DNA of 32,154 bases from a virus (Duplodnaviria > Heunggongvirae > Uroviricota > Caudoviricetes), in the IMG/VR virus record IMGVR_UViG_2531839665_000013; one strand, written 5' to 3'. This document shows positions 17,186 to 32,154 of the stretch, piece by piece. Each line of letters begins with the position of its first letter. Positions within the stretch are counted from its first letter, which is position 1. The notes beneath the pieces are model-generated. The model was not told the DNA's origin and made no database searches. It saw only the letters and a list, made by a program, of their open reading frames with translations. The position numbers were made by a program, and so were the translations under genes.

Positions 17186-18009
17186 AAAAATTACTTTTTG
17201 CTTTAGCCCTTGTTCTGCCGACCATTGGCCTTGTCGGTTGCGATCGCGTTGAGCCTGGTAATGTGGGCATCAAAGTAAACAAACTTGGCGACGATAAAGG
17301 CGTCGGTGAAGTGGTCGGTGTTGGGCGCTACTGGACGGGATGGAACACTGAAGTTTACATCTTCCCAACCTTCAAACAAATGAAGACCTACGATGAGCCG
17401 TTCAGCTTCCAGATGAGTGACGGCACAACCATTGGCTATCACATCGGTGTTGCCTACAAAGTTGATCCATCCAAAGTTACCACGGTGTTTCAGACCTACC
17501 GCAAAGGCGTGGATGACATTACCGATACTGACCTGCGCCAGAAGATCGCCGACGCACTCAATCGACTGGCCAGCAAAATGACCACTGACAAATTTATCGA
17601 CGGCGGGAAGTCTGAACTACTGGATGCAGCTCTTAAAGACATTCAGGCAGAAATGACGCCCATCGGTATTCAGGTAATGAGTCTCTCATATGTGGGTAAG
17701 CCGGAGTACCCGCCAACCGTTATCGACAGCATTAATGCCAAAGTCACGGCGAACCAGAAAACCCTGCAACGCGAACAGGAAGTAAAACAGCGCGAAGCGG
17801 AAGCTAACATGTTGCGCGCGGAAGCTGCCGGACAGGCAGATGCGATTCGCACAAAAGCCCAGGCCGAGGCCGATGCTATTCGTTTACGCGGTGAAGCTCT
17901 GCGCCAGAACCCTGGCGTCATGGAGCTGGAAGCCATCAACAAGTGGAACGGTACTCTGCCGCAATACATGACCAGCGGTGCCAATACACCATTTATCCAG
18001 ATTAAATAA
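17182..18009 (+). CDS. SPFH/band-7 (stomatin-prohibitin-HflK/C) family lipoprotein
   Basis: Lipoprotein signal MKKLLFALALVLPTIGLVGC; C-terminal Ala/Glu-rich helix ...AEANMLRAEAAGQADAIRTKAQAEADAIRLRGEALRQNPGVMELEAINKWNGTLP typical of SPFH proteins. Confidence 0.8.
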   Translation: MKKLLFALALVLPTIGLVGCDRVEPGNVGIKVNKLGDDKGVGEVVGVGRYWTGWNTEVYIFPTFKQMKTYDEPFSFQMSDGTTIGYHIGVAYKVDPSKVTTVFQTYRKGVDDITDTDLRQKIADALNRLASKMTTDKFIDGGKSELLDAALKDIQAEMTPIGIQVMSLSYVGKPEYPPTVIDSINAKVTANQKTLQREQEVKQREAEANMLRAEAAGQADAIRTKAQAEADAIRLRGEALRQNPGVMELEAINKWNGTLPQYMTSGANTPFIQIK

Positions 18010-18037
18010 CTTACACGCCCGGCAAACCGCCGGGTTA

Positions 18038-18421
18038 ATGGAAAATCAGATGAACAACCAGAATACTCAACCGCAAATAATGAACTATGACCCGAATCTG
18101 ACGTCGTGCGGACGCATGGCAAAACAAACCGTTCGATTAACTTTCGGACTATGGGAATACCGCGAAACATTCGAAGTTACTGTCGGCGGCAATCTGACCG
18201 GACTGGATGTTATCAATTGCGCTATTGAAAGCCTGTACGCAACGCTGCCTTATGAAGAAGCCCTGGATGAGCGCACAGGGGAAACGGATATCATGGCCAC
18301 CATTAATATTGGCGAACTGATATGCCAGGATGAAGACCTGTCCGGAGAACTCTGGCTTGCCGGGATGCTTATCTCAGCAGAAATTATCAGCATTGAACCC
18401 GCTACAAACATACGGCTCTGA
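18038..18421 (+). CDS. Hypothetical protein (127 aa)
   Basis: Internal ATG of a track ORF, just after the SPFH stop. Confidence 0.45.
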   Translation: MENQMNNQNTQPQIMNYDPNLTSCGRMAKQTVRLTFGLWEYRETFEVTVGGNLTGLDVINCAIESLYATLPYEEALDERTGETDIMATINIGELICQDEDLSGELWLAGMLISAEIISIEPATNIRL

Positions 18422-18900: not shown

Positions 18901-20187
18901 ATGAGTAACGCATCATACCCGACAGGCGTTGAAAACCATGGAGGATCACTCCGTATATGGTTTCACTATAATGGCAAACGTGTCAGAGAAAACCTCGGTG
19001 TTCCTGACACAGCCAAAAACCGGAAGATCGCTGGTGAACTTCGCACTTCCGTTTGTTTTGCAATCAGAATGGGGAGTTTCGACTACGCCGCGCAGTTCCC
19101 TAATTCCCCTAACCTGAAACACTTTGGTCTGGGAAAAAGAGAGATAACCGTTAAGGCACTTTCGGAAAAATGGTTGGACCTTAAGAAAATTGAGATAGGA
19201 AGTAATGCATTCAGTCGGTATCAATCCGTGGTGAGAAACATGCTTCCTCGCATAGGGGAAAAACGTCTTGCTTCGTCGGTAACAAAGGAAGATTTACTGT
19301 TTATCAGGAAAGATTTGTTAACCGGGTATCATAATCTCTCTAACGGAAAAACAACGCCGATTAAAGGGAGGTCAGTAGTTACGGTTAATTACTACATGAC
19401 GACAATTGCAGGAATGTTTCAATTTGCGGCTGATAACGGCTATATCGTGTCAAACCCATTTAACGGCCTGACACCATTAAAGAGATCCAGAACAGAACCA
19501 GATCCGCTCACACGAGACGAATTTATTCGTTTTATTGATGCCTGTCACCATCAACAAACGAAAAACCTGTGGTCCTTAGCAGTATACACAGGCATTCGTC
19601 ACGGTGAGCTAATATCTCTCGCTTGGGAGGATATTGATTTAAAAGCTAAAACAATGACTATCCGTCGTAATTATACAAAACTCGGGGAGTTCACTCTACC
19701 AAAAACAGAAGCGGGAACTGATCGTGTTATTCATCTTGTTCAACCAGCTGTTGATGCCCTGAAAAGCCAGGCTGAAATGACAAGACTTGGCCCTCAGTAT
19801 CAAATTGACGTCAAGCTTCGGGAGTTCGGTCGCACTGCACGCCATGAATGCACGTTTGTTTTTAATCCGCAACTGGTGAAAAAATGCCAGCAAGTCGGTC
19901 ACCACTATAAAGCAGATTCCATCAGAGATTCCTGGGCATCTGCATTAAGGCGAGCAGGACTGCGGCACAGAAAAGCCTATCAGTCCAGGCATACTTATGC
20001 CTGTTGGGCATTATCGGCAGGAGCGAATCCAAGCTTCATAGCAAACCAAATGGGCCATGCAAATGCACAAATGGTATTCAACGTTTACGGAGCATGGATG
20101 AAAGATAACAATATCGGGCAAATAGAACTACTCAATAAGCAGTTGACGGAGAGTGTCCCATACATGCCCCATAGAGCCAGACTCTGA
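18901..20187 (+). CDS. int: Tyrosine integrase (lambda Int family)
   Basis: 428 aa; C-terminal catalytic region with ...YTGIRHGELISL... (Arg), ...HANAQMVFNVYGAWM... and RHTYA; N-terminal arm-binding-like region; last gene before the host junction. Confidence 0.9.
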   Translation: MSNASYPTGVENHGGSLRIWFHYNGKRVRENLGVPDTAKNRKIAGELRTSVCFAIRMGSFDYAAQFPNSPNLKHFGLGKREITVKALSEKWLDLKKIEIGSNAFSRYQSVVRNMLPRIGEKRLASSVTKEDLLFIRKDLLTGYHNLSNGKTTPIKGRSVVTVNYYMTTIAGMFQFAADNGYIVSNPFNGLTPLKRSRTEPDPLTRDEFIRFIDACHHQQTKNLWSLAVYTGIRHGELISLAWEDIDLKAKTMTIRRNYTKLGEFTLPKTEAGTDRVIHLVQPAVDALKSQAEMTRLGPQYQIDVKLREFGRTARHECTFVFNPQLVKKCQQVGHHYKADSIRDSWASALRRAGLRHRKAYQSRHTYACWALSAGANPSFIANQMGHANAQMVFNVYGAWMKDNNIGQIELLNKQLTESVPYMPHRARL

Positions 20188-20229
20188 AATAATATCTTTA
20201 AATATCAGTTGTTTTAATGGTAGTTGCCG

Positions 20230-20625
20230 TCACATTAACTGCGTGGAGGGCAACACCACGCTTTACGCCCTGCCGAAACCCGAGGTTGTCCTGCGCTGGC
20301 GTGAACAGACCACAGATGACTTCCGCTTCTGTTTTAAGTTTCCGGCGACCATTTCGCATCAGGCAGCATTACGACATTGCGATGATTTAGTGACTGAATT
20401 TTTGACCCGCATGTCACCGTTGGCTCCGCGCATTGGGCAATACTGGCTGCAACTGCCTGCCACATTCGGCCCACGGGAGCTGCCTGCGCTTTGGCATTTT
20501 CTCGATTCTCTCCCTGGCGAATTTAATTATGGTGTGGAAGTCCGCCATCCACAGTTTTTCGCCAAAGGGGAAGAGGAACAAACTCTTAATCGCGGTTTAC
20601 ATCAGCGCGGCGTTAATCGGGTGAT
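20230..20625 (+). pseudogene. Fragment of a host chromosomal gene flanked by two mobile elements; possibly yecE (DUF72)
   Basis: Mid-GC ORF with no start of its own beginning right after int and ending where the AT-rich element begins. The yecE identity is from recollection that yecE is a lambdoid/Stx phage insertion site, not from alignment. Confidence 0.35.
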
Positions 20626-20697
20626 TTTCATCAGACACGTTTAAATACACCACCTAAAGCGATACAATCGCGCTATTAGTTTTTATGGTGGTAAAGA

Positions 20698-22221
20698 ATG
20701 AAACGTGTAATCAGCTACATCAGATTCAGTTCTGAGCGACAAGCCAAAGGCGACTCACTACGCAGACAGTCTAAGATGGTTAATGACTGGCTTAAGGCTC
20801 ATCCTGAGTACTACCTTGACCAAGATTTATCCTTCCGTGATTTAGGTGTGAGTGGATTCACTGGTAAGCACTTGAAAGGTGGCTTAGGTGACTTCTTAAC
20901 CGCTATCGAGAAAGGGCTTGTTAAAGCTGGTGATACGCTCTTGATAGAATCTCTTGACCGTTTGTCACGTCAGGCCGTAGACCGAGCAAGTGAGCTATTA
21001 CGAAACATTCTTCGCTCTGGTGTAGATGTAGTCACCCTGTCCGATGGTGAACATTACACAAGTGAGTCTCTTAAAGACCCGTTAGCTCTGATTAAGTCCA
21101 TCTTGATTATGCAAAGAGCACATGAAGAGAGTCTGCGTAAATCTGAACGTATACAAGCTGCATGGAACCGTAAAAAAGAACTCATCTCTGAAGGTATCAA
21201 GATTTCTAAGCGTTGTCCTGCATGGTTAAGGCTGAATGATGACCGTAAAAGCTTCTCTGTAATCCCTGAGAAGGTAGAAACTGTGAAGAGGTGCTTTCAG
21301 CTACGATTAGAGGGTAAGTCTATCTGGGAGATTGTTCGGACTCTTAATGATGAAGGTCACCAGACGCTTAACCAGCACAAAGCGGGTTCATTTGGTCAAA
21401 GCTCAGTACAAGACCTTTTGAAGAATCGTTCTGTAATTGGTTACTTCACACCTAAAGGCTGTGAGGAGATATCTGGTTATTTCCCCCCTATCATCCCTGA
21501 GACTGATTTCTACAAAGTCCAGCAACTATCATATTCTCGTTATGGAAGAAAGCCTGCTTCAGATAAACCATTGAGTGTGAATCTCTTTAAAGGTGTTATC
21601 CGTTGTTCTGAATGTGGTCATGCTCTGATTATCACAGGCTTTAGCGATACAAGAAACGGGATTTATCGTTGTCCTCTTCGTAATGAAAACCGTTGTAGTG
21701 CTAAAGGGCTGTCACGTAAGCAAACCGATGGTACATTGCTTACCCTGCTATCTCGTCTTGACCGATTTGATAGCGATACGACGAATACCATAGATATGTT
21801 GAGGCTACACCGTGAACACATCTCAAGCAATATTGAAAAGCTGGTACAGCTATCACTTGAAATTGAAGATTTGTCAGCTATTACCATCAAACTAAAGCAG
21901 TTAAAAGGTGAGCTATCACAGGTTGATGCGGATATCGAGAAGGAGACACAACGCCTTAAATCTATTGATGTGGGGTGTTTGTCCGATTGTGACTTGACTA
22001 CAAAGGCGGGAAGGATTGAAGCACAACTGATAATCAAAAGTGCTGTTAAAGAGGTCGTTTTAAATACTGCTAAACGTCGCTGTAAAGTAACTTTTCACAA
22101 CGGTAAAGCAATCACCTTACCAATAACAGAAAACCCCTCAGAGGACGTTACAGAGGCTATACAGTCGCTTTCTGAAGTCACTGAGAGGGGGTTGATAGAT
22201 GTTGATGAGGTTATCATATAG
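20698..22221 (+). CDS. Large serine recombinase (resolvase/invertase N-terminal catalytic domain + recombinase domain + zinc ribbon)
   Basis: N-terminus VISYIRFSSERQ (catalytic Ser), ...LLIESLDRLSR...; 507 aa; Cys cluster CSECGH...YRCPLRNENRC; long C-terminal coiled coil. Confidence 0.88.
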   Translation: MKRVISYIRFSSERQAKGDSLRRQSKMVNDWLKAHPEYYLDQDLSFRDLGVSGFTGKHLKGGLGDFLTAIEKGLVKAGDTLLIESLDRLSRQAVDRASELLRNILRSGVDVVTLSDGEHYTSESLKDPLALIKSILIMQRAHEESLRKSERIQAAWNRKKELISEGIKISKRCPAWLRLNDDRKSFSVIPEKVETVKRCFQLRLEGKSIWEIVRTLNDEGHQTLNQHKAGSFGQSSVQDLLKNRSVIGYFTPKGCEEISGYFPPIIPETDFYKVQQLSYSRYGRKPASDKPLSVNLFKGVIRCSECGHALIITGFSDTRNGIYRCPLRNENRCSAKGLSRKQTDGTLLTLLSRLDRFDSDTTNTIDMLRLHREHISSNIEKLVQLSLEIEDLSAITIKLKQLKGELSQVDADIEKETQRLKSIDVGCLSDCDLTTKAGRIEAQLIIKSAVKEVVLNTAKRRCKVTFHNGKAITLPITENPSEDVTEAIQSLSEVTERGLIDVDEVII

Positions 22222-22235
22222 TTGAGATTCTATCG

Positions 22236-23009
22236 TCAGTATCGCTTGTTAGGATTAACAGAATACTTCTTCAAAGTACTACCTGTACCAGCATTATTAA
22301 GCACCTTTGAAGCTTGCTCATTAGCGGCATCTGAGAAGGTGCTTTTTCCATTCTCAACTTTGACACTTTTACCACAATTGATACGGGCTTGAAGTTGCTC
22401 ATTAGTGAGTTCACTCGTAGAGCGATTATATAGCTCCTGACACATCAACATACCATTACCTAAACTTGTTGTAGTGTTACCTGTATTCTTCTTACTGGTA
22501 GCACCACCATCATTCGTAGTCGCGGCTTTTCCAGTTGCAGCCGAGATATCAGTCTGTCCCACAACAGCTCTGAAGTTAATTTCCTGAAAAGTTAGTTGGA
22601 TTCTTAATCCGTTTGAAATTCCAACATCTTTAGAGGCTTTAAAACTCGTAATAATGGAATCATCAATCTTGATACCGTCTTTACAGATGACCGAAATAAT
22701 TTGCTTCTGGTCACGCCAGCTTTCGAGAGTGTCAATGAAGTTTTCTACTAATTGACCCTGACGAGTTAATAATAAGCTTCCTTCATAGCCAACTACAACG
22801 ACACCACTAATAGTGATTGTTCTGGGTGCTCTTTGCACATTATCTGTGACGGTTTGCCCTGATTGCATGTTCTGTGTAGTCACCTGCATAGGACTATCAA
22901 ATTCCATGTTTTCAGTTGCTGATAAGGTTAAGAAGGCATCTACATTGTCTCTTAAGTGGAAATAGATGCCATCTTTGCCACTATATCTAAGTTGTTTTTT
23001 GTCAAACAT
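22236..23009 (-). CDS. Hypothetical protein (257 aa) downstream of the tape-measure gene; possible distal tail protein
   Basis: Position only (gene after TMP); Thr/Gly/Asn-rich central region. Confidence 0.55.
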
Positions 23010-23098
23010 TGTTGTATTCCTCTTAAGGGTGAGCTACATGAATACACCTGAGTAGTTATAGGTCGTAATTTTTAATTTTCACGTAGAACACCGTTAAA

Positions 23099-25147
23099 TC
23101 AATCATCTTCTGGATAGCTTGAACTTAATAGCGTAGCTTCTGCGTATTGGTCGTAGATATTACTGCTAAAGGTCATAAAGCTGGTTTCATCTGGTTTAAT
23201 GGCAACTTCACCACCAAGTGAAACTTTCACAGGCTCCTGAATACGTTTGCTCAAAGCACTAATTTCATCTCTCAGGCTTTGGATATCCGTATTCGTTAAT
23301 GCCGCATCTTGTCTCATGGTGATTAATTCTGGATGCTGGAAGTTAGCAAGATTCATAGCTGCACTATTAAACCAACCTTTCACATCATCCATAGTGAACA
23401 CTGGTTTAAGTCCAGACTCTTTAGCTAGCTCTGGTAATTTAGCTTGTGCTTCCATTCGTTCAGGTGTAGAAGCTAATCTCTCATAACCTGCATAGATAGC
23501 ACTACCAGCTAATAGCATATTCCCAAGATTAAACCTTGATGGTTTCCCGTTCTTTCTATTCACGTTATCCGCTGTAGTATCAGCGACCTGACCTAATCTT
23601 GTGATAGCAGTCATAAGCCCGTAAATACTTCTGGTTACACCAACAACTTTATTCACAGCAATAACACCAGCCAAGACTTTTAAACTATTAATCAAGCCAG
23701 AACCTAAAGCATCAACTACTTTCTTTTGTTCATCGGTTAAACCACGATAAGCTAATGTCACCTCATCGAAGAATGCTCTTACCCTGTAAGAAATATCGGT
23801 TAGTGAATCGACCCCATGCGACATATCACTCATCAAGCTACCAAAACTTTCACCTAATGTTTTACCACTCCCACCTAAACTATTTAAAAGATTGGTTAAG
23901 CTTCTTGTGAAATCTTGAAGACCATCTTCAGAACCTCTGAAGATATCCGTTAGTGAGTTGTTCCAAGTATTCTTCAAGTTCCCTAGCATTGTCTGCGTAG
24001 AGTCCTGAATAGCTTTCCAGCCACCTCTTGAATTAATCTGTGAACCAAGTTCTTTAGCAAACTTAGGGAGTGCATCAGAGGCTTTAACATCACCATTTTT
24101 CATCTTATCGAAAAGCTGTTTTTCAGTCAGACCTAAAGCCTTTGCAAATGCCTGAGTAGCACCCGGTAAAGCTTCAGATAGTTGCCCCTTAAGTTCTTCA
24201 GCCATCACCTGACCCTTAGAAGCCATCTGCGACACTGCGGTTAATGCTCTTTGAATCTGCTCATCTGAACGACCCATTAAACGAGAATAACCTGTAAGGT
24301 TTTTAAATAATTCCTCTGCCCCTTCAAGACCCATCGTGTTCTTTGCAGATGCACCAAATGAAGCAAATTGCGCTTGTGTTTCGGTTGTGTCCATACCAGT
24401 AATTTGAGTTAAATCCTGAATGAACTTTTTAACCTGTGTACTTTGGTCACCGAATACGAAATCAATACTTCTTTCCGATGATGCACGTTGAAGGCCAACT
24501 TCCATAATCTTCTGATAACTGGCTAATACAGCCTGAAAGCTGATAAATGCACCTGCTGTTTTAACTGCTGCTGAACTCAAACTATCAAGACTATTAGCTG
24601 CTCTGTCACCATTAATGCTGGTGGATGTATGACCTTTAGCTTTAGCAATTGCTTCTCTGACTGAAGCATTTAGCTGAGCCAGCTTCTCATTGAATTTTGA
24701 AGAATCCATTGAACCGGCTTTAGCAGATAGCCCGTAAAACTGAGATTTGATGTATTTCTGCAAAATAGGGTCAAAGCCTTTTAGCTTAGACATATTAGCT
24801 GAGTAAGCCGCTGTGATTGCTCTGTTGCCGCTAATTCGTGGCTGTCTTGGTTGTTTTGGAGGATTAACAGTGTCATTAAATCTGGTGGCAAACTGAAATG
24901 CTCTTGTGTTTCTTGCTCTCTGTTCAATCTTGTCAAAGGTCTTATTAAACTTCCTTTCAAGTTGCCCTAAAGAACTTGTCAGATTGCTGTCAAGCTGCTT
25001 TGTATTAATCCTGAAACCTTTATTTAGGTTCTTTTCAATTCTTTGTGCTGACTGCAAAGCTGCCTTTTCAACTCTTTGCAAGCCCTTAATAACGTTTTCA
25101 CTGAAGCCTAGCTCAACGATAAAACTATCAACTTTAAACTGTGCCAT
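23099..25147 (-). CDS. Phage tail tape measure-like protein (682 aa)
   Basis: Core motif ...MASKGQVMAEELKGQLSEALPGATQAFAKALGLTEKQLFDKMKNGDVKASDALPKFAKELG... is typical of tape-measure proteins; AAGAGGTGA RBS. Confidence 0.75.
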   Translation of the reverse strand: MAQFKVDSFIVELGFSENVIKGLQRVEKAALQSAQRIEKNLNKGFRINTKQLDSNLTSSLGQLERKFNKTFDKIEQRARNTRAFQFATRFNDTVNPPKQPRQPRISGNRAITAAYSANMSKLKGFDPILQKYIKSQFYGLSAKAGSMDSSKFNEKLAQLNASVREAIAKAKGHTSTSINGDRAANSLDSLSSAAVKTAGAFISFQAVLASYQKIMEVGLQRASSERSIDFVFGDQSTQVKKFIQDLTQITGMDTTETQAQFASFGASAKNTMGLEGAEELFKNLTGYSRLMGRSDEQIQRALTAVSQMASKGQVMAEELKGQLSEALPGATQAFAKALGLTEKQLFDKMKNGDVKASDALPKFAKELGSQINSRGGWKAIQDSTQTMLGNLKNTWNNSLTDIFRGSEDGLQDFTRSLTNLLNSLGGSGKTLGESFGSLMSDMSHGVDSLTDISYRVRAFFDEVTLAYRGLTDEQKKVVDALGSGLINSLKVLAGVIAVNKVVGVTRSIYGLMTAITRLGQVADTTADNVNRKNGKPSRFNLGNMLLAGSAIYAGYERLASTPERMEAQAKLPELAKESGLKPVFTMDDVKGWFNSAAMNLANFQHPELITMRQDAALTNTDIQSLRDEISALSKRIQEPVKVSLGGEVAIKPDETSFMTFSSNIYDQYAEATLLSSSYPEDD

Positions 25148-25174
25148 TGTTCATATTTCACCTCTTAAGTGTTC

Positions 25175-25206
25175 ATAGACTTCGGATAGAAGACTATCCT
25201 CATATA
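25175..25206. promoter_or_regulatory. 32-bp element ATAGACTTCGGATAGAAGACTATCCTCATATA (copy 1), containing palindrome GGATAG-AAGA-CTATCC; upstream of the TMP gene
   Basis: Identical copy at 26891-26922. Confidence 0.6.
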
Positions 25207-25301
25207 CAAAAAAGGGAGAAACTACCGAATAATATCGATAATCTCTCCCCGTGTTATAGATTCGATAGAACCTATCTCATACACCCAACCAATTCTTTTT
25301 T

Positions 25302-25511
25302 TTAATGCCTGACAAGATAATGTAATTCCGTTTCACCTATGATTTGGGCATCAGAAGGGATACGGTCGATACACCACTTTGGAATCTTGCGTGTTTTTGG
25401 TTTGTGTGAGGTGATAACTTGACGTTTGTTTTTAATTCTTAAGGCTGGATTGGCTTGTAACTTTAAGTTTTCACAAACAGACCGAATAGTCTCTAAACGT
25501 TCTTCAATCAT
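25302..25511 (-). CDS. Hypothetical small protein (69 aa)
   Basis: GAGGTGA RBS directly before the ATG; start context TGAGGTGATGAATG shared with the next gene. Confidence 0.45.
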   Translation of the reverse strand: MIEERLETIRSVCENLKLQANPALRIKNKRQVITSHKPKTRKIPKWCIDRIPSDAQIIGETELHYLVRH

Positions 25512-25533
25512 TCATCACCTCATAATTCAATTT

Positions 25534-25842
25534 TCACTCCAAGAAGCGAATGCACTTTACACCGCGTTCATTCTTTACAATTTCGTAACGTATTGAGAGA
25601 CCAGCTTTATCAAAGATAGATTCAAGCCGTCCTACATCACGCTTGAGGTCTCTAATAAGGAAGGTTAAATCATCTCGACCCTCAAACTTTAGTTCGGCAA
25701 GAGGCTTTTCTTCCATACGACCAATAAGATATTCAGTGACCTCCTGAATATCACCAAGAGTCGTTTTAATTTCATTGAACCTATCTTCAAAAGGTTCCAT
25801 TACCCCTTTAATTCTTTTATCGCGTTCTGTTAAATCATTCAT
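25534..25842 (-). CDS. Hypothetical acidic protein (102 aa)
   Basis: GAGGTGA RBS; ORF from track. Confidence 0.55.
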   Translation of the reverse strand: MNDLTERDKRIKGVMEPFEDRFNEIKTTLGDIQEVTEYLIGRMEEKPLAELKFEGRDDLTFLIRDLKRDVGRLESIFDKAGLSIRYEIVKNERGVKCIRFLE

Positions 25843-25850
25843 TCATCACC

Positions 25851-26555
25851 TCAAATAGCCTTGCTAAATTCTCGTGGAACACTCAGAAAATCATTGAAGC
25901 TGATAATCTGTGCCAACTCTTGACGGTACTCCTTAGCCAACGCTTGATGGTCACTAATCAGCTTAGCCAGTCTTGATTTCAGCAAATTAATCTCATTTTC
26001 TCTTGCTTTCATCAGTTTCTCTTTGGCAATTTCTTCAAGCTCAGCCTGTGATTTATCAGCAACAATTAGAGACAGTCGATGTGGTGCTCTGACAGCTCTT
26101 TCTGTACGAATAACTCTTTGACCTTCTGGTAAATCTGCAATCACTTTACCAATCTCTACAGGGTCATACCCCCAACCGTCACGGTCCAGTCGAGAGAAAT
26201 AAGCATAAGAATTGGTTTGAAGCTCCATCGAAATAGCCATTTCGTCAATTTCGTCTTCAAGCTTGGACTGAATTTTCTCGTAAACACTTCTCATTGCTTC
26301 TTGAGAGTCTTTAATAGCTTGGAAATATCGGCGTTGTAGCTTCAACTTCAAATCAAGTTCACACTGTTCGTTCATAGAAAAATCAATTTCAACTCTTGGA
26401 ATCTCGAGTGGTTCTGGTGGAATATATGGACCTTTATTTACTTCGTGTGATTCCCGCCAAGCTCTATCAAAAGATTCACGCAAAGTTAATTCGTGAATAT
26501 CAAGTGCACTTGGTCGGCTTTCAATAATCATTTCATTTTCATCACGGATAGCCAT
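25851..26555 (-). CDS. Hypothetical protein (234 aa), highly charged with coiled-coil character
   Basis: ORF from track. Confidence 0.6.
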   Translation of the reverse strand: MAIRDENEMIIESRPSALDIHELTLRESFDRAWRESHEVNKGPYIPPEPLEIPRVEIDFSMNEQCELDLKLKLQRRYFQAIKDSQEAMRSVYEKIQSKLEDEIDEMAISMELQTNSYAYFSRLDRDGWGYDPVEIGKVIADLPEGQRVIRTERAVRAPHRLSLIVADKSQAELEEIAKEKLMKARENEINLLKSRLAKLISDHQALAKEYRQELAQIISFNDFLSVPREFSKAI

Positions 26556-26890
26556 TAATACCTTTCCTCTTCTAAGATAATTTATGTTTCAGTTTTTAAA
26601 AAGCACACCTGACATCCTCGAACTTAGAAGAGGCTTAAAAGGCGGTTTGCCAAGTATGCTTTTTAAAAGCTGAAAAAGCCCTAGATAACTAAAACGCTAT
26701 AAAGGGCTAAGGTGAAGAAATTAAAGAACATCTAAAGGATTCAATGAATGAACAAAGACTTTTCGAGATGACCTCTCAGACTAACCTGAAAGGCCATGTA
26801 GCGAAAAGCATTGCACCTTTCCAACTCAGAATATAGTTATCATCGATGTAGAATGATTAATATTTTAATTCAAGGAGAATTGCTCCCCCT

Positions 26891-26922
26891 ATAGACTTCG
26901 GATAGAAGACTATCCTCATATA
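26891..26922. promoter_or_regulatory. 32-bp element, copy 2 (identical to 25175-25206)
   Basis: Read directly. Confidence 0.6.
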
Positions 26923-26979
26923 TACAATTATGTCATGCTCAAGGTTATTTGTCAACAGCTTTTAACAGATTGGTAACAT

Positions 26980-27045
26980 TTATACTTTAATAGATGCACC
27001 TGCAATCATACCAATCAATACAAAACAGATAATCACCAATCCCAT
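26980..27045 (-). CDS. Possible 21-aa hydrophobic peptide (MGLVIICFVLIGMIAGASIKV), TAATG-coupled to the upstream gene
   Basis: Hand-translated; start overlaps the stop of the 27045-27374 ORF. Confidence 0.25.
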   Translation of the reverse strand: MGLVIICFVLIGMIAGASIKV

Positions 27046-27374
27046 TAATGCACCACCTTCGAATCCGTCACCAAAATATTGTCAGCGTACAAAATTGCTA
27101 TAGCTGCCTTGAGATATCTTTCAGGGCTAACGCTGTATTTGCTCGTTTGCTCGATAACCAATCTTTTCATGTTGCTGTCTTTAATTGGTAGCATCATTCG
27201 AGGCTCGTTAAACTCCACCGACTGAATAAAGTCAGAGATGCTTTCCGCATTATCAGTCATTAACTCTAACAACTTATCAAAGTCAATGCTAATACCTGCA
27301 TCAGTGAAGCTTTGCACCATCATAGCGGTGTCGTTATCAATAAAAATCTGTAGTGGGAAGTTTAATTCTCTCAT
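27045..27374 (-). CDS. Hypothetical acidic protein (109 aa)
   Basis: AAGGAG RBS; ORF from track. Confidence 0.55.
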   Translation of the reverse strand: MRELNFPLQIFIDNDTAMMVQSFTDAGISIDFDKLLELMTDNAESISDFIQSVEFNEPRMMLPIKDSNMKRLVIEQTSKYSVSPERYLKAAIAILYADNILVTDSKVVH

Positions 27375-27523
27375 TTCCTAAAATCTCCTTTTTACCATAC
27401 CTCCTCAATCGCTCTGTAACGAGCTAAACAGTCTTTTTCAGGGGTAGCATGTAGGGGTGTACCACATACCTAAAATAAGATAGTTTTTTGCGTTAGAATG
27501 CGATTGAGAGCGTCTGAGAAGCT
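27375..27523 (-). repeat. Left arm of a ~150-bp imperfect inverted repeat (promoter/5' leader of the 27045-27374 gene)
   Basis: Aligns by eye with the reverse complement of 30293-30445; shared blocks GCTTCTCAGACGCTCT, TTAGAATGCG, TAAAATAA, GTGGTACA, CTACCCCT, GCTCG(T/C)TACAGAGC. Confidence 0.55.
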
Positions 27524-27552
27524 GTTTTTCTAATTTCTCTTAAAGTCTCGGA

Positions 27553-27753
27553 CTACCAATAACCTAATTCCGCTTTATTTCGTTCAAACCATTCCGCTGT
27601 AACTGCTGTCTTTAGTGTTGCGTTTGGGCTGGTGGCATGAATGAAGATATCTTTTGGATTGCAAGCATCACCGAAACCACCTTCTTTGATGAGCAGGTCT
27701 GATACATGCTTAATCATTTTATCTGTCAAATATTCGAATTTAATACATAGCAT
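27553..27753 (-). CDS. Hypothetical small protein (66 aa from the Met that overlaps the HNH stop)
   Basis: TAATG overlap with the upstream HNH gene; the track ORF extends to 27786. Confidence 0.45.
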   Translation of the reverse strand: MLCIKFEYLTDKMIKHVSDLLIKEGGFGDACNPKDIFIHATSPNATLKTAVTAEWFERNKAELGYW

Positions 27754-28025
27754 TAAATCTCCAGTAGTAAATTGTTTGGGTCGCAATTTCTTTTATTACC
27801 ATCCCTGAAGATAATTTTTTTAGTTGCCTGAACTTCATGATGCAAAAACCAGATGACATACTTCAGATAATAATCACGAGTGCCATAACGAATCATTGGA
27901 TTACCGTAAGCATCATCTCTTGTCTTAACTTCTCCACCATCAATCCATTCAAGCATTCCTGTTTCGTAATTAATCATGAAGTAAGTTGCAAAGAACCGTT
28001 TAATATCATCTCGCCATTGCTTCAT
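27753..28025 (-). CDS. HNH-type endonuclease (small, homing-endonuclease-like)
   Basis: ...HHEVQATKKIIFRDGNKRNCDPNNLLL... fits the HNH His...Asn...Asn pattern; AGGAAG RBS. Confidence 0.6.
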   Translation of the reverse strand: MKQWRDDIKRFFATYFMINYETGMLEWIDGGEVKTRDDAYGNPMIRYGTRDYYLKYVIWFLHHEVQATKKIIFRDGNKRNCDPNNLLLEI

Positions 28026-28027
28026 AA

Positions 28028-28309
28028 TCAGACTTCCTGAGACAGTTTGTGAATTTTGATACTTAGTAACCTTGCTAAATCCAGTCCAAAAGCATTTAAA
28101 GATTTCAGACTATCAAGGTCATCTTTCTTAATCCTGACATGGTGTCTTGCTGCCTCTAAACGACTATTAAGCAAATCCTGCTCGTTAATATCACGGTTAA
28201 TTGCAAGCTTCATCACTGCTGAGTGTGGCAGACCTGTAATGTTTTTGATTCGGTTAAGTTCTTCAAAGGCTGTCTTTGTAACTCTGGTTAGCGTGTGTTT
28301 ATTTCCCAT
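28028..28309 (-). CDS. Hypothetical small protein (93 aa), possibly a DNA-binding regulator
   Basis: Internal Met of a track ORF; ATG sits 1 nt after the upstream stop (TAA-A-ATG). Confidence 0.45.
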   Translation of the reverse strand: MGNKHTLTRVTKTAFEELNRIKNITGLPHSAVMKLAINRDINEQDLLNSRLEAARHHVRIKKDDLDSLKSLNAFGLDLARLLSIKIHKLSQEV

Positions 28310-28310
28310 T

Positions 28311-28865
28311 TTAAAATTCCTCTGCTTGTGCGTATACGTCAAATTCAAAGTCTGGTTCACTGGTTGTAAGGCTGATATTTCCAACTTCCGCATGATGATT
28401 AATTGTCTCAATAACTTTCATGCAAATAGTGGCTAAGTTAGCGCAATATTTATCACTTGGTAATTCGTAGCTAAGTCTGGTTGCTTGTCTTTGAAGATGG
28501 CTCGTCACTGTGCTTGAACTAATCTCATCAAGGCTTCGAAGCAAATAAAAAACCTTCCGGTGATAGTTATCCCTTCCAAAGCTGCGACAAGTACCGATAA
28601 TTACATCTTCAATTTTTGATGGTAGTTGCTCGTAAGAATCAAAGCTCATCAAGAAAGTTTTTAAAGTATTCTCTTTTTCTTTGCGTACTGGCATAAATCT
28701 GTCTCGTGGCGTAATGCTACGAATGACCGCTTCAATGTTTTTACGTTCGGTTTTGGAAAAGGCTGGTACTTCGTAGCTGGTGGGGGTGTCTGTGTAAGCG
28801 TAGGAGTTGTGCTTGTTGCGCTCTCTTGATGCTTGAAGCATCGCTCTAAATTCTCTGTCGTTCAT
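28311..28865 (-). CDS. Hypothetical protein (184 aa)
   Basis: ORF from track; first gene after the long non-coding region. Confidence 0.6.
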   Translation of the reverse strand: MNDREFRAMLQASRERNKHNSYAYTDTPTSYEVPAFSKTERKNIEAVIRSITPRDRFMPVRKEKENTLKTFLMSFDSYEQLPSKIEDVIIGTCRSFGRDNYHRKVFYLLRSLDEISSSTVTSHLQRQATRLSYELPSDKYCANLATICMKVIETINHHAEVGNISLTTSEPDFEFDVYAQAEEF

Positions 28866-29375
28866 TCATATTCTGACCCTCATGAAATGTTATTATTCTG
28901 TTAACTTATATATACAATACTAGCATTTTCAAAGACTAATGTCAAGTATTTTTTAACATTTCATTAACATCTGTGGTATAATGGTTCTATGAGAGAGGGG
29001 GAAATATGAAGCGTGGCTATGTATTTGGTCACATGTTTTTGCATTGCACACAGAAGGTACATTGAATGGTAAATCTCCCTCCTGAGCTGGGGTCACCTGA
29101 TGTATGGGCTGGTGGAGGTGTTGGGCTGATTGCAGGTCTTCTGCTCCGCTATTTCATCGTTCGGGTGTTTATCGTGTTCAGATTGTTTGGTCGTGAATGG
29201 TCATTTGACCTCAAGGACAGGACCAGAACAGACAACCACACAGACCCCCGTTAAACTCCCTTCAAATCCCCCTGTACGAGATGGTATAGGGGCATTTTTA
29301 GCATTTTGTGCTATCTATTAAAAAACAGCTTGACAGAACCGGAAGGCTGTATCTATCAAGTATTCACCCCTCTAA

Positions 29376-29530
29376 CAGTGATTTCTAAAAATGCTTATTT
29401 TTCAATGAGTTGTAATTAGCCAATATAAAGGACTGACAAGACTCTTCACAGAGAACTCTGTAACCTTAACATTGATTTCTAAAAGTTATTATTTTTCAAT
29501 AAGTTGTAATCACCCAATATAATAGCTGTT
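29376..29530. repeat. Two ~60-bp direct repeats (29376-29435 and 29469-29530) inside the coding-poor region
   Basis: (C)AGTGATTTCTAAAAATGCTTATTTTTCAATGAGTTGTAATTAGCCAATATAAAGGACTG vs ACATTGATTTCTAAAAGTTATTATTTTTCAATAAGTTGTAATCACCCAATATAATAGCTG; most positions agree. Confidence 0.6.
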
Positions 29531-30292
29531 CAGCACCTTCACAGGGAAACTTCAGAGGCCTTCTTAACCGTCCACTAATCGAGAGAGAGGGTGATACATG
29601 AGAAAGAACCCTCCCTTCTTAAAAACCTTCTTGACAATCTTTACAGACCTTGTTCAAGGTAATCACAATAGTTTTCTTCCCTCGGTTTCCTGTGTTCCTC
29701 GGTTTATCTATTGAGGGCTTTGAAATGTCCCTGTAACTTCCCTCTTAGACAGGGAAGAATAATATTGGTGACACAAGCGAAGCGCCCCTCTAAAAAGATT
29801 TTTTAGCTACTTTGTTTAAAAGCACATCAAACGATACATTTTATTGATTTAGGTCAAAGACAAAAGCATTGACAAAATGGTAAGATTGTTCACATGACCT
29901 TACTTAACAGATTCTTGAGAGCTTTGAAACGGCCTATTTAACAAGGTTACTACCTCTGGTCTTATCGCTCCCTCTTGGTAGTTCTGTTAAGAATTTTTCA
30001 GTTTTTATTCTTAAGATAATTGTTAAGATGATACTCTCCCCTTCGGGTTATATCGTATCTTTCCTCCCGTTAAACACTCCTTCCTAGCAACTTCATAGTT
30101 ATCTGTCAAGTACCTTTGAAGATTCTATCAAAACCCTCTAAATCCGACCTGATATAGAAGTTTTACAGGCATACTCTCTAGATACCATCAAGGGACACTA
30201 AGCGGGAGAGAGGATATGGTGACCATAGGGGAACCCCTCCTGTTAAAAAGACCACTTAGAAGTCTGAGACTTTAGTAAAATCTGTGAATATG

Positions 30293-30445
30293 GCTTCTCA
30301 GACGCTCTGTAACGCATTCTAAGCGATTTTACCCCTTTATTTTAAGATGGGTGGTACATACCTATAGACTACCCCTAAAACTGGGGTTAAAACTCGCTAC
30401 AGAGCTTTCTATGAGGTTTGGTAAGATTGTGCAAAATCTGTACAG
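30293..30445 (+). repeat. Right arm of the ~150-bp imperfect inverted repeat
   Basis: See the left arm at 27375-27523. Confidence 0.55.
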
Positions 30446-31070
30446 TAACTTTTCAGAGTCTGAAAATTTTTATAAAAATCATAGTAACCCCTCTACATTT
30501 CCCTTCACCGATAATCTTAAAAAATATCTACACAGTTGATTCGGTAGAATCTACCTCATGATTGATGGCTGTTAAGTACCCCAGATTCACGATATAGCAC
30601 CCCCTTTGCAAAAGCAGTTAAAATATCTATTGACTTTCTTCATAGCATCTGTTTAGCTCCACCTCAAGAAACCTTCACCACACTTCAAAGCATCTATCAA
30701 GAAGATTTAACCTATCAATAGCTGTAAAATTTTATAGTCCTGTGAAGTCCTCCCCAGTTTTCTCTGTAACAGCTACAAACTTCTGTGACCTTATGTATCA
30801 ATGACTTAGAATACATGCTCTCAAGGTTCTGTATAGTCTCTTATCATCCAATACATAAAACCCTTATAAATCAGTACTGATATGTATACAGTTCGTTTTT
30901 AACATAATAGCTGTTTTACGCACTAATCGTGTTCTACATGAAATCTGTATAGATATTAAGGTGTCTGTAAGTGATTTTTTAAGAGGAGCTACGAAGAACT
31001 ATAACCATCATCTCCTAACTTTCACATGAGAAACTGTTAATCAGCTTGATAGTTACACCATGTGACCAAC

Positions 31071-31318
31071 TGCATAGATAGCGTTATATAGCACTGTATA
31101 TAGCACTTTTCTAGGAGTCGAGAGAGGGACGACTAACACCCTGCATAGCTCCCTGAAAAGAGACTTCACAGATTCTTTATATATTTCAATAAGTTATGAT
31201 AAAAAGGGACTATACCGATACTGCATAGAATCTGTGTAGAATTGCATAGATACTTGGAAAAATGCCTTTAAATTGCATAGGTACTAACCTGTTTATGTCC
31301 TGTTATTTACAGGCATAG
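31071..31318. repeat. Iteron-like cluster: TGCATAG at 31071, 31142, 31222, 31244, 31274 (and GCATAG at 31313), plus TATATAGCAC x2 at 31086-31107
   Basis: Read directly. Confidence 0.55.
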
Positions 31319-31320
31319 CA

Positions 31321-32154
31321 TTATTGGTTAATTAATTCATCCGACTCTATATCATTACCTTTTTCTTTTTCCTTTTTAATTTTAGCCTCTACCATATCGA
31401 ACATTTTCATTGTCTGTGATGAAGTTAGCTCTTTCTTTTGTCGTAGTGCATTACGTATGGTAGAAGCTTCAATATCAGAAACTGTTAAAAGTTCTTCTAC
31501 CCTACTCTTCAATTGCTGTAATGAACGGCTATTATCAACTTTAAAGAAATCATCCATTACCTCAAGTGAGGCAACAATCAAATCCTGTAGTCTCTCTTTT
31601 TCTATCTCGATATTTTCAATGGTTTGTTTTTCTTTAGATACTAACTGCTTTAAATTATTAATTTCTTTCTGAATCAGTTTCTTCTCTGTCTGTAGCTCTT
31701 CTGTGACCAGCTCTTCACGCTTACCACGCTCTACTTCCGCTTTAATATCAGCATCAATTTTAGCATTTTCTTTCTCTTCTTCTCTGGCAACCCGAACCTT
31801 TAACCCCGTTAACCTGATTGAATTAAGGTATTCTTTTTCCTTTGTAAGATAAACATTTTCACTGTGTTTATCTGTAGCCCATTTTTGAGCAAGAGAAAGT
31901 AACCATTGAGCATAAGGAGTAATAACAGCTAGCACACTTCCAAAAAAGACAGGTGCTAACAGATAATGTACATAAAAATATTCCTGAGACAGAATATAAT
32001 CTATTCGAAACTTAACAGGAGCATCACTCATAAAGAGCATTGCTAAGTTAGGCCAATTGAACCATACCCATGCAAGAATGATATATCCCCATAATGGGCT
32101 TTTAATCCTATCGTTTATTGCTTGCATAGTAGAATCTAACCATCCATCACTCAT
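31321..32154 (-). CDS. Hypothetical membrane-anchored coiled-coil protein (277 aa); start codon at window edge, may extend beyond
   Basis: N-terminal hydrophobic segments (LWGYIILAWVWFNWPNLAMLF; LLAPVFFGSVLAVITPYAQWLL) followed by a long Glu/Lys-rich heptad-like region. Confidence 0.55.
   Translation of the reverse strand: MSDGWLDSTMQAINDRIKSPLWGYIILAWVWFNWPNLAMLFMSDAPVKFRIDYILSQEYFYVHYLLAPVFFGSVLAVITPYAQWLLSLAQKWATDKHSENVYLTKEKEYLNSIRLTGLKVRVAREEEKENAKIDADIKAEVERGKREELVTEELQTEKKLIQKEINNLKQLVSKEKQTIENIEIEKERLQDLIVASLEVMDDFFKVDNSRSLQQLKSRVEELLTVSDIEASTIRNALRQKKELTSSQTMKMFDMVEAKIKKEKEKGNDIESDELINQ

Follow-up and report, generated by a model that had tools for sequence, protein, structure and literature searches.

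We have found that positions 20698-25147 of the window (the whole stretch of 32,154 nt which was analysed) belong to a complete integrative element and make up one of its ends. The element has about 11.6 kb and interrupts the yecE gene of E. coli in its middle. The element is probably a satellite of virulent Felixounavirus (Felix O1-like) myoviruses, which would build hybrid tails with components of its own. We infer that it depends on a helper and that it is transferred. No published description of the element was found in the literature. The first-pass annotation had proposed two alternatives, either a prophage which a recombinase-borne insertion had cut short or a compact satellite-like or defence element with a tape measure gene. 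The second one is supported and can be made more precise: the tail genes come from Felixounavirus, and the end of the terminal repeat of the phage is present in copy.

The element starts at 20622 and runs beyond the window by about 97 bp; the region 20698-25147 is only its left third. Its attL site lies in positions 20622..20651 (+), as given by a comparison of att sites and by alignment with the yecE gene of K-12, in which homology ends at 20628. The two halves of yecE overlap by 5-7 nt (loci L001 and L002), and from attL, attR and attB the crossover dinucleotide TT may be placed at 20627-20628. On the element side attL has the half-site CATCAGACACGTTTAAATACACC, which repeats the right end imperfectly and in inverted orientation. 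Towards the right no conventional siphovirus prophage is found: relatives with the same right-hand gene reach attR, at the 3' fragment of yecE, and in other E. coli genomes (L001, L002, L036) both halves of yecE directly flank the gene set. The predicted attP, exact and intact, is found inside a metagenome contig of 11,473 bp which has no yecE flanks and in which the right end is joined directly to the recombinase end. Thus an excised form exists; the contig bears on excision alone. Contigs with the whole element have yecE flanks of k-mer length only, and no copy of attP is present among IMG/VR viral contigs.

These boundaries decide on the first alternative. Looked at locally, the tail genes stop abruptly at the recombinase gene, as they would if a recombinase-borne insertion had cut through a conventional tailed prophage and left only its end. 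This explanation is refuted and we leave it practically no probability: the recombinase, both tail genes and all right-hand genes lie within one pair of att sites, bounded by the halves of yecE; size and gene order are constant at three integration sites; in relatives no capsid, terminase or further tail genes come after it; and the excised contig closes right end to recombinase end. On the other hand the description as a second element was correct, since the DNA on its left is a separate lambdoid prophage, which uses a tyrosine integrase and sits at another site in yecE.

The gene next to attL (20698..22221, +) codes for a large serine recombinase (LSR, integrase) of 507 aa with Resolvase, Recombinase and Zn_ribbon_recom domains (Pfam) and a match to PHROG 95 integrase (E 4e-76). 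The numbers of differences in its three codon positions, 259/181/563, indicate purifying selection. Both tail genes converge on it, and there is no gene between the recombinase and the nearest of them. The tape measure protein (TMP, 682 aa, 23099..25147, -) is recognized by Pfam TMP_3 and by 11 PHROG families labelled as tape measure, together with two further PHROG matches without annotated function. It matches the TMP of phage Bas63 (gp017, PDB 9ndy_F) with E 1.9e-67. Its identity with gp118 of phage garuso is 44% in residues 1-81 and 29% in residues 199-682. Both ends match the phage, with about 45 N-terminal residues and the C-terminal motif LLSSSYPEDD in common, while the middle has diverged. 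In the Bas63 structure the C-terminal residues of the TMP contact the hub (PMC12609058), and they are retained in the element. All variants seen are shorter than the phage proteins: 682-724 aa as compared with 735 in garuso and 742 in Bas63. This gene is also under purifying selection (579/357/963).

The second tail gene (22236..23009, -) codes for 257 aa and is, as judged from its sequence, the baseplate tube initiator (Dit-like) of virulent Felixounavirus phages: it matches Pfam Dit_like and the "Tube initiator protein (gp018)" of Bas63 (PDB 9ndy_A, E 1.9e-128) and has 81% amino acid identity with gp119 of garuso. The N-terminal, tube-like domain is almost identical to that of Felixounavirus. 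Over the first 558 nt (22437-22994) the identity with phage KEP2 is at least 97%, and similarity stops beyond; such sharp edges point to recent recombination with phage DNA. The C-terminal tail, about 67 aa, is specific to the element and has the element type in all 16 variants. Differences by codon position are 287/161/748 in the N-terminal part, which is under purifying selection, and 40/44/54 in the tail, which is near-neutral. Both proteins derive from virulent myoviruses (Felixounavirus) and not from a siphovirus.

The first-pass annotation had read these genes well. The recombinase, the short tape measure and the 257-aa gene downstream are all there, the tail genes which usually follow are absent from 20629-32154 in profile searches and tblastn, and the three genes upstream of the TMP (69, 102 and 234 aa) match no tail or chaperone family.

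The features of the two tail proteins also suit another explanation, in which the element is a mobile defence island, not itself transduced, whose TMP and chimeric tube initiator work as dominant-negative decoys. By means of the conserved ends of the TMP and the N-terminal domain of the tube initiator, which is almost that of the phage, they would be built into the Felixounavirus baseplate during assembly and give dead-end or defective tails, so that infected cells release few infective phages. The matching ends and diverged middle of the TMP agree with this idea, as does a tube initiator which joins a phage domain to a tail always of element type, near-neutral or diversifying. Inhibition of tail assembly is besides a known defence strategy, found in Tai (PMC11364771) and in Rta of PLE11 (PMC12987554). 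We consider decoys unlikely, for reasons which appear below, but defence and transduction coexist in PLEs, so that this explanation overlaps with that of a satellite and does not exclude it.

One of these reasons is a conserved region of about 2 kb (29300..31320) which has no ORF: its differences are uniform by codon position and the candidate ORFs have stops in relatives. Its nucleotide identity is 70-94% across variants. In Citrobacter, which has a recombinase of only 34% identity, the value is 67-81%; the region is as conserved as the coding genes. It contains two direct repeats of 56 nt (29373-29428, 29467-29522), a few CTTAACA/TTAACA repeats of phage type (about 29903-30030) and a cluster of TGCATAG(R)TA repeats (31071-31283). 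No Rfam match or conserved RNA structure was found in it. Inside this region there is a block (30445..30640, +) homologous to the end of the direct terminal repeat of Felixounavirus. It has 75-77% identity with 34 phage records (best E 3e-11); among the matches listed, all phages are Felix O1-like (Ounavirinae). The counterpart of the block falls in an ORF-free region of the phage as well. Phage D4 has an exact terminal repeat of 581 bp, which had been reported from a PhageTerm analysis (PMC11737134). In four phages the end of the repeat falls midway in the shared block, with a position of the termini which rests on one GenBank record, and its equivalent in the element is 30573|30574. The bases which flank this boundary on both sides are invariant between elements and phages.

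The block is a candidate for a terminase recognition or cutting site in a satellite. Some features speak against the satellite interpretation: no counterpart of the start of the repeat was found in the element, so that only the boundary at the repeat end is mimicked; element and phages share no more than about 75% identity in the block; and some variants lack the part of it with the hairpin. A defence island with decoy tail proteins would leave both the non-coding region and the terminal-repeat block unexplained.

The rest of the element contains small genes. Directly upstream of the TMP there is a conserved protein of 69 aa (25302..25511, -), with an identity of 84-99% in E. coli variants and 42-54% in distant ones (L021, L023, L035), always in this place. 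It occupies the position of a tail assembly chaperone, a role which is only putative; it has no family match and no similarity to phage chaperones. Between a terminator-like hairpin and the ribosome-binding site of the TMP we find the first copy of a 37-nt direct repeat, D2 (25175..25211, -), with the hairpin GGATAG-TCTT-CTATCC; its two copies are 95% identical. Further upstream, an accessory ORF of 102 aa (25534..25842, -) is present in L001, L036 and L023, missing from most related loci and without family match. It is followed by a core gene of the family (25851..26555, -), which codes for a helical coiled-coil protein of 234 aa. This protein has two allele classes (93-97% or about 25% identity among variants) and homologues only in Escherichia, Shigella and Citrobacter; its AlphaFold2 model has two long helices and low confidence (pLDDT 57).

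A sigma-70-type promoter-like site, TTGACA-17-CATAAT with TG, immediately followed by the second copy of the 37-nt repeat (26891..26955, -), is the candidate promoter of an operon with the 234-aa, 69-aa, TMP and tube initiator genes. It is a consensus match alone, with 11/12 matches in a promoter scan, and the count of such sites in the region is not above chance. With a strong site of host type, expression of the tail operon need not depend on the phage, which counts against a satellite and favours a defence island with decoys.

The next gene (27045..27374, -) codes for a core protein of 109 aa with 71-88% identity in all variants, including Citrobacter, and no credible family match; its sole PADLOC match is a marginal one to a restriction enzyme (E 0.007). 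Then comes a slot of variable gene content (27553..28025, -), here with a 77-aa ORF (27553-27786) and a 90-aa HNH endonuclease (27753-28025; Pfam HNH_3, E 1.5e-5). The first genes of the operon (28028..28865, -) belong to the family core and code for 184 aa (28311-28865) and about 92 aa (within ORF 28028-28411). Positions 28866..29300 (+) comprise a divergent promoter region, with promoter-like sites in 28953-28982 (+) and 28945-28917 (-), and a gene (29066-29254, +) for a single-pass membrane protein of 62 aa, which has a terminator to itself (29269-29292). The codon-position differences (89/22/137) indicate a real gene; the frame is intact in all variants whose alignment reaches the stop (6/9), and PGAP annotates a homologue in DEC5B. 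The terminator-like hairpin region which follows has a conserved structure (SCI 0.85-0.89). Finally, a variable slot beside attR contains a 277-aa cargo gene (31321..32154, -), also found in L002, L029 and L036. Its product has N-terminal hydrophobic stretches which by eye resemble membrane segments, a coiled coil, and no Pfam, NCBIfam or PADLOC match. Other variants have instead an AP2-type gene, a Dam methylase or a small resolvase at or near the attR end.

The family has matches in 550 of the 5,426 complete E. coli genomes. Related elements with other large serine recombinases are found at tonB and in Citrobacter. Throughout three integration sites and three recombinases the size is constant, about 11.2-11.6 kb, and the gene order is kept, even where recombinases are only 34% identical. 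Decoys do not explain this tight size in the presence of variable cargo, nor the spread to three sites and several genera without transfer genes. Searches with Pfam, PHROGs, NCBIfam and PADLOC found no sheath, tube, hub, wedge, fibre, capsid, portal or terminase gene in 20629-32154, and tblastn of a whole Felixounavirus genome found none of them either. The other genes of the element have no homologues in the phage which supplied its tail genes, and for the remaining proteins neither a family nor a fold could be matched. Nothing was identified as a replication initiator, primase, terminase subunit or capsid-size factor, which counts against a satellite; the lack of replication and packaging genes agrees with a defence island.

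Many copies have insertion sequences or stop codons, which also counts against a satellite; in ARS-C301 both the TMP and the 234-aa gene contain internal stops. These copies, and the lack of a recognizable function in most of the proteins, might suggest an inert remnant, be it an integrative element or a temperate relative of Felixounavirus in decay, which captured a piece of tail module, with tail genes and non-coding similarity devoid of function. We find this quite improbable. Every ORF in the window is intact; the TMP, the N-terminal domain of the tube initiator and the recombinase have a strong third-position bias; gene order is conserved in spite of the divergent recombinases, and the non-coding region as strongly as the genes. 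The 558-nt tract speaks for continuing exchange with circulating phages, an excised form exists, and tblastn with the full phage genome gave no pseudogene traces of other phage genes.

Several known systems can be compared with the element. The PLEs of Vibrio cholerae have a size of about 18 kb, as against about 11.6 kb here. They also have a large serine recombinase, and their chaperone, TMP and hub protein replace those of phage ICP1 in chimeric tails, which are about 10 nm shorter (PMC12987554). As in PLEs, we find a small chromosomal island integrated by such a recombinase and related to a virulent myovirus, not to a temperate phage. It has its own TMP, shorter than that of the phage, and a baseplate-core protein, both diverged homologues of phage proteins, together with large conserved non-coding regions with repeats and small genes for nuclease-type and membrane proteins. 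It differs in its hosts (E. coli, Citrobacter), in the phage group (Felixounavirus) and in the absence of recognizable genes for a replication initiator, capsid remodelling or nuclease effectors. In PLE11 the BhuB protein is 41% identical to that of ICP1; the second tail protein of the element is a tube initiator, with an N-terminal domain near-identical to the phage. The likeness to PLEs was set by description.

Satellites of cos type carry the packaging site of their helper, as P4 does with the cos of P2 and SaPIbov5 with its helper cos. The element similarly bears a copy of a helper genome end (30445-30640), through which it would be packaged by the terminase of the helper. However Felixounavirus has direct terminal repeats instead of cohesive ends, and only one of the two boundaries is mimicked. 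Unlike P4 and SaPIs, the element has no tyrosine integrase, primase, sid/psu/delta, terS, cpm or ccm in Pfam and PHROG searches. Capsid-forming PICIs supply capsid, portal, protease and packaging functions from genes of their own and take only tails; none of these genes is present in the element. They are enterobacterial satellites for which putative tmp genes have been reported (PMC12987554, Extended Data Fig. 10), and the element shares with them a predicted TMP gene. As in Tai, PLE11 Rta and Tab, its net effect is likely to be interference at tail assembly (PMC11364771, PMC12987554), but those are small inhibitors unrelated to tail components, whereas here the candidates are homologues of the tail core. 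PADLOC models gave no credible match in the element.

As a satellite, the element would be excised and amplified upon Felixounavirus infection. The phage terminase would recognize its DNA through the mimic of the repeat end, and the DNA would be packaged into heads made by the phage. Since 11.6 kb is about 13% of the helper genome, small capsids or multimers would be needed, which is a difficulty for this interpretation. To these heads hybrid tails would be attached, with the TMP and tube initiator of the element in place of those of the phage, on phage hub, tube, sheath and fibres. As the TMP of the element is 53-60 residues shorter, such hybrid tails are expected to be about 8-9 nm shorter. 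The proposed logic would be the same which has been shown experimentally for the PLEs and phage ICP1. The diversion of tail cores and packaging would reduce phage yield, and in this way the element would protect the host population.

The left part of the window (1–20227) is the right part of a lambdoid prophage, with E. coli as host. It contains Rz, lysozyme, a NanS-type esterase, tRNAs, the AgvB and STnc100 sRNAs, antiterminator Q, primase, helicase, an HTH regulator, an excisionase and a tyrosine integrase (18901–20187). Its insertion site is close to the 5' end of yecE, and its attR side resembles Stx-type phages that use this gene. AgvB (anti-GcvB) and STnc100 adjoin two tRNA-Arg genes at 6632–7206; a third tRNA-like match at 7138–7206 is given by Rfam only (36 bits) and not by ARAGORN. 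Between the tRNA cluster and the Q gene, near the usual place of stx in Stx phages, a 314-aa ORF is found on the opposite strand (7333–8277, +). This ORF, without a Pfam match and in DNA of low GC content (37–41% G+C), may be a cargo or defence gene. Similarity to K-12 yecE resumes at 20227 and continues to 20628; the DNA to the right of this stretch is an element distinct from the lambdoid prophage. The gene has two tandem occupants (20153–20644, 20227–20628): the prophage with its tyrosine integrase, then the serine-recombinase element about 400 bp further in. Strain ARS-C301 shows the same double occupancy.

In this second element the first-pass annotation had noticed a large serine recombinase (LSR), a tape-measure-like gene and one more gene downstream of the latter. 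All three are present: the LSR at 20698–22221 (+), the tape measure protein (TMP, 682 aa) at 23099–25147 (−) and a 257-aa Dit-like tail protein at 22236–23009 (−), called here the tube initiator. The LSR has the resolvase catalytic, recombinase and zinc ribbon domains (Pfam PF00239, PF07508 and PF13408), each above cut-off. The same gene set is enclosed by the 5' and 3' fragments of yecE in E. coli 2e, ARS-C301 and O55:H7 DEC5B. From the alignment with K-12 yecE and the comparison of attL, attR and attB, attL corresponds to 20622–20628 and the crossover TT to 20627–20628. The ends of the element are imperfect inverted repeats GGTGTATTTA(R)AC, a pattern expected of a serine integrase. Relatives which share the right-hand gene have attR 97 bp beyond it, so the window ends just before the right end of the element, whose length is about 11.4–11.6 kb. 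It had been suggested that a prophage was truncated here by the insertion. This reading is refuted: the element is found entirely between its att sites, with no capsid, terminase or other tail genes. The features of a defective prophage or tailocin are absent too, as no sheath, tube, hub or wedge genes were found between the att sites. Neither are there pseudogene traces of a larger phage: the ORF-free region has a non-coding substitution pattern and no protein-level matches.

An exact copy of the reconstructed attP is found inside the metagenome contig ERZ1090866 NODE-760 (11,473 bp), where the right end of the element is joined to the recombinase end, with no yecE flanks. An excised form, circular or concatemeric, therefore occurs in nature. 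The element has the features which define LSR elements: a three-domain integrase, simple att sites with a short crossover and an attP regenerated by excision. Two further assemblies contain the whole element with just 30–58 bp of yecE on each side, as expected where occupied and empty sites coexist in one sample. A search of the IMG/VR viral contigs with the predicted attP found no copy; at least six IMG/VR loci with the TMP are integrated copies with the recombinase gene adjoining. Contigs of about 11 kb in ENA and Logan were considered as packaged or excised copies and rejected: they are integrated, with flanks of k-mer length, or are found at tonB. The variant in the NODE-760 contig differs in its left-hand gene module. 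The contig opens (1–100) with three copies of the palindrome (G)TGACATTTTGTCAC(T), which might serve as operator or origin, and terminates in Nextera adapter sequence.

Matches to the family are present in 550 of 5,426 complete E. coli genomes, all of them in the chromosome; they are strongly mosaic and frequently interrupted by IS elements. Related elements with a different LSR use the 5' end of tonB, and the element of Citrobacter sp. ANG330 has a third LSR, only 34% identical. Records of Shigella, E. fergusonii and Salmonella also belong to the family of the 184-aa core protein. The gene order is conserved. A slot of variable cargo comes first, then about 2 kb of conserved non-coding DNA and the gene of a small membrane protein on the opposite strand; the genes of the 184-aa and about 92-aa proteins follow, then a second variable slot (HNH etc.), the genes of the 109-, 234- and 69-aa proteins, and finally the TMP, the tube initiator and the LSR. 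The last three are labelled by PGAP: 'tape measure protein', 'phage baseplate protein' and 'recombinase family protein'. Two sister elements (L025, L032) have an LSR of 506 aa and lie at the tonB start codon, between promoter and coding sequence, and have a duplicated AATGACCCTTGA, one copy per junction; such an insertion might affect tonB expression. Damaged copies are common. The ARS-C301 copy has internal stops in the TMP (locus L002, 15216–17264) and in the 234-aa gene (17592–18296), the Citrobacter copy has an IS21-like insertion within the TMP (locus L021, 11125–13061), and copies in clinical E. coli often have insertions of IS2, IS100 or ISEc12. Unlike many members of the family, the window copy has every gene intact. 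Identity with SpLE2 of O157 Sakai is unsupported: SpLE2 is listed at sbcB, not yecE.

The tail genes of the element are, as judged from sequence similarity, derived from a virulent Felixounavirus. The tube initiator matches the 'tube initiator protein gp018' of phage Bas63 (PDB 9ndy) with E 1.9e-128, and the TMP matches Bas63 gp017 with E 1.9e-67. Their counterparts in phage garuso, gp119 for the tube initiator and gp118 for the TMP, are adjacent and followed by hub and wedge genes, which the element does not have. In the tube-initiator gene the stretch 22437–22994 has at least 97% nucleotide identity to phage KEP2, and the similarity ends sharply at both edges. In each of the 16 variants compared, the C-terminal 67 residues are of a type specific to the element; differences by codon position are 40/44/54 in this part, almost neutral, versus 287/161/748 in the N-terminal domain. 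In Bas63 a hexamer of this protein is the adaptor between the threefold hub and the sixfold tube, with a C-terminal extension that passes through the baseplate; the hub contact of the TMP is formed by its last 25 residues (PMC12609058). The TMP of the element is far more diverged than the tube initiator, with 29–44% identity to garuso. It retains the first 45 residues or so of the phage protein and the C-terminal motif LLSSSYPE(D/E). Among variants the TMPs are 48–86% identical, mosaic with phage-like segments and always shorter than that of the phage. Both TMP termini and the N-terminal domain of the tube initiator, the parts which would have to fit the hub and tube of a helper, are phage-like; the rest is diverged.

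No further tail, head or packaging genes were found in 20629–32154 with Pfam, PHROGs, NCBIfam and tblastn against the garuso genome. In the three databases credible matches are limited to the LSR, the TMP, the tube initiator and HNH; tblastn gave nothing significant besides the two tail genes. The 69-, 102- and 234-aa proteins were compared pairwise with the two phage TMP chaperones as candidates for this role, with no significant similarity. No T4-type late promoter motif is present in the element. A 37-nt repeat is found in two 95% identical copies (25175–25211 and 26891–26927) with a hairpin GGATAG-TCTT-CTATCC. Upstream of the 234-aa gene there is a strong promoter-like site, and one of the copies forms the beginning of its transcript. 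The second falls between a terminator-like hairpin and the ribosome-binding site of the TMP, with a degenerate third copy just upstream. The repeat may be a control element of the tail operon, of RNA or operator type; its 25-nt core is absent from the garuso genome at up to five mismatches. Long local hairpins with arms of 35 and 28 nt are found at 27404–27508 and 26587–26675, in intergenic DNA upstream of the 109-aa and 234-aa genes.

A previously missed gene at 29066–29254 (+) codes for a conserved single-pass membrane protein of 62 aa; it has its own promoter-like site and terminator and is transcribed away from the main operon. Beyond it, the region 29300–31320 has no ORFs, but its conservation equals that of the genes, also in Citrobacter. 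Rfam gives no match there even at E values as high as 1, no consensus RNA structure emerges for the phage-shared block (−0.06 kcal/mol), and a sliding RNAalifold scan detected conserved structure only in the terminator after the 62-aa gene. Most likely, then, this region acts as DNA. It contains a cluster of TGCATAG repeats of the element's own (31071–31283) and a few repeats of phage type at about 29903–30030. An inverted repeat of 67 nt (27493–27559 and 30256–30322, 75% complementary) pairs the intergenic DNA that follows the 109-aa gene with a site 2.7 kb off in the ORF-free region; five other variants show this pairing too. That the element is just an inert remnant is very improbable: this reading is contradicted by purifying selection, by the conserved non-coding DNA and by the recent exchange with phages.

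Among 50,697 phage records, the block 30445–30640 has 75–77% identity to a stretch of Felixounavirus and Mooglevirus, with no other phages among the matches listed. Its phage counterpart is part of a zone of 1.6 kb with no ORFs, flanked by transcription units that converge on it (garuso 48952–50603). This zone has 17 of the 55 genome copies of CTTAACA, often 11 bp apart and on both strands, which may be a binding array for terminase or a replication protein. Direct terminal repeats were reported by PhageTerm for vB_EcoM_D4 (PMC11737134). In its record (PP886228) we have found an exact 581-bp repeat at both ends, within the ORF-free zone. The end of this repeat falls in the middle of the block which four other phages share with the element. 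The bases flanking the repeat-end boundary are invariant between phages and elements, and the boundary itself corresponds to 30573|30574 in the window; the element has no counterpart of the boundary at the repeat start. The block may be a cis-acting signal for packaging by a helper. Other sources of the phage terminus were of no help: the terminal repeat of KMM2 is merely a 64-bp assembly overlap, the JLBYU28 record has no terminal repeat, and neither the Felix O1 genome paper nor the other literature checked gives a terminus position. We have found no literature description of a Felixounavirus zone with a 581-bp terminal repeat and a CTTAACA array. A defence in which the element is a decoy that is not transduced accounts for the chimeric proteins; it leaves the mimic of the repeat end, the constant size and the spread of the family unexplained, and we consider it rather unlikely.

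The element lacks genes for a virion of its own (capsid, portal, terminase and most tail genes), as is general in satellites. The closest parallel is found in the PLEs of Vibrio cholerae, serine-recombinase islands that parasitise the virulent myovirus ICP1 and have their own chaperone, TMP and hub protein; these replace the proteins of ICP1 and give chimeric tails about 10 nm shorter (PMC12987554). The integrase of our element is also a large serine recombinase. Its tail module consists of a TMP and a tube initiator homologous to those of the candidate helper; the 69-aa protein in the chaperone position has no similarity to the phage chaperones. The host is E. coli instead of V. cholerae and the related phages are Felixounavirus instead of ICP1, so that the likeness is one of shared logic and not of host or helper. 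Core genes of PLEs are RepA, TcaP, NixI, CapR and LidI; Pfam detected no replication-initiator domain in any ORF of the element. In satellites the time of lysis can be changed by small membrane proteins, such as LidI of PLEs, but nothing ties the 62-aa protein to such a role. P4-like satellites have a tyrosine integrase, the alpha primase-helicase, sid/psu/delta and a P2-type cos. None of these features appears in any ORF of the element with Pfam and PHROGs, and its integrase is a serine recombinase. PICIs are characterised by a tyrosine integrase, alpA and pri-rep, to which capsid-forming PICIs add capsid, portal, protease and small terminase genes; none of these defining genes was found either.

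Taken together, the PLE-like anatomy, the absence of virion genes, the excision and the copy of the end of a helper terminal repeat lead us to favour a satellite: the element is probably dependent on Felixounavirus. The excised metagenome copy and the samples with both occupied and empty sites lend indirect support to the putative induction, packaging and transfer by a helper. More tentatively, such elements would be widespread, undescribed satellites of virulent Felix O1-like phages in E. coli and Citrobacter, and would bring almost no machinery themselves. Packaging, and perhaps replication too, would rely purely on cis-acting mimicry of the helper's terminal-repeat region. Only the tail core would be re-tooled, the fast-evolving C-terminal tail of the tube initiator being a switch that favours the satellite TMP and spoils phage tails. 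In the full-text literature we found no description of the element and no link between satellites and Felixounavirus.

To our knowledge, the strategy of hybrid tails has been described only in 2025–2026, for cholera PLEs. If our interpretation is true, this would be a second satellite family which exploits a strictly virulent phage and builds hybrid tails, the first in Enterobacteria as far as is known. The strains and phages of the BASEL collection make the system readily testable, and the solved baseplate of Bas63 gives a structural frame for understanding the chimeric tube initiator and the TMP. Against Salmonella and E. coli, Felix O1-like phages are in wide use in biocontrol and therapy, and they also serve for typing these bacteria. 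About one tenth of the complete E. coli genomes have sequence matches to the family, including strains of EHEC lineages, with many copies partial or disrupted by IS elements. The element could influence the efficacy of Felix O1-like phages and carry DNA between strains.
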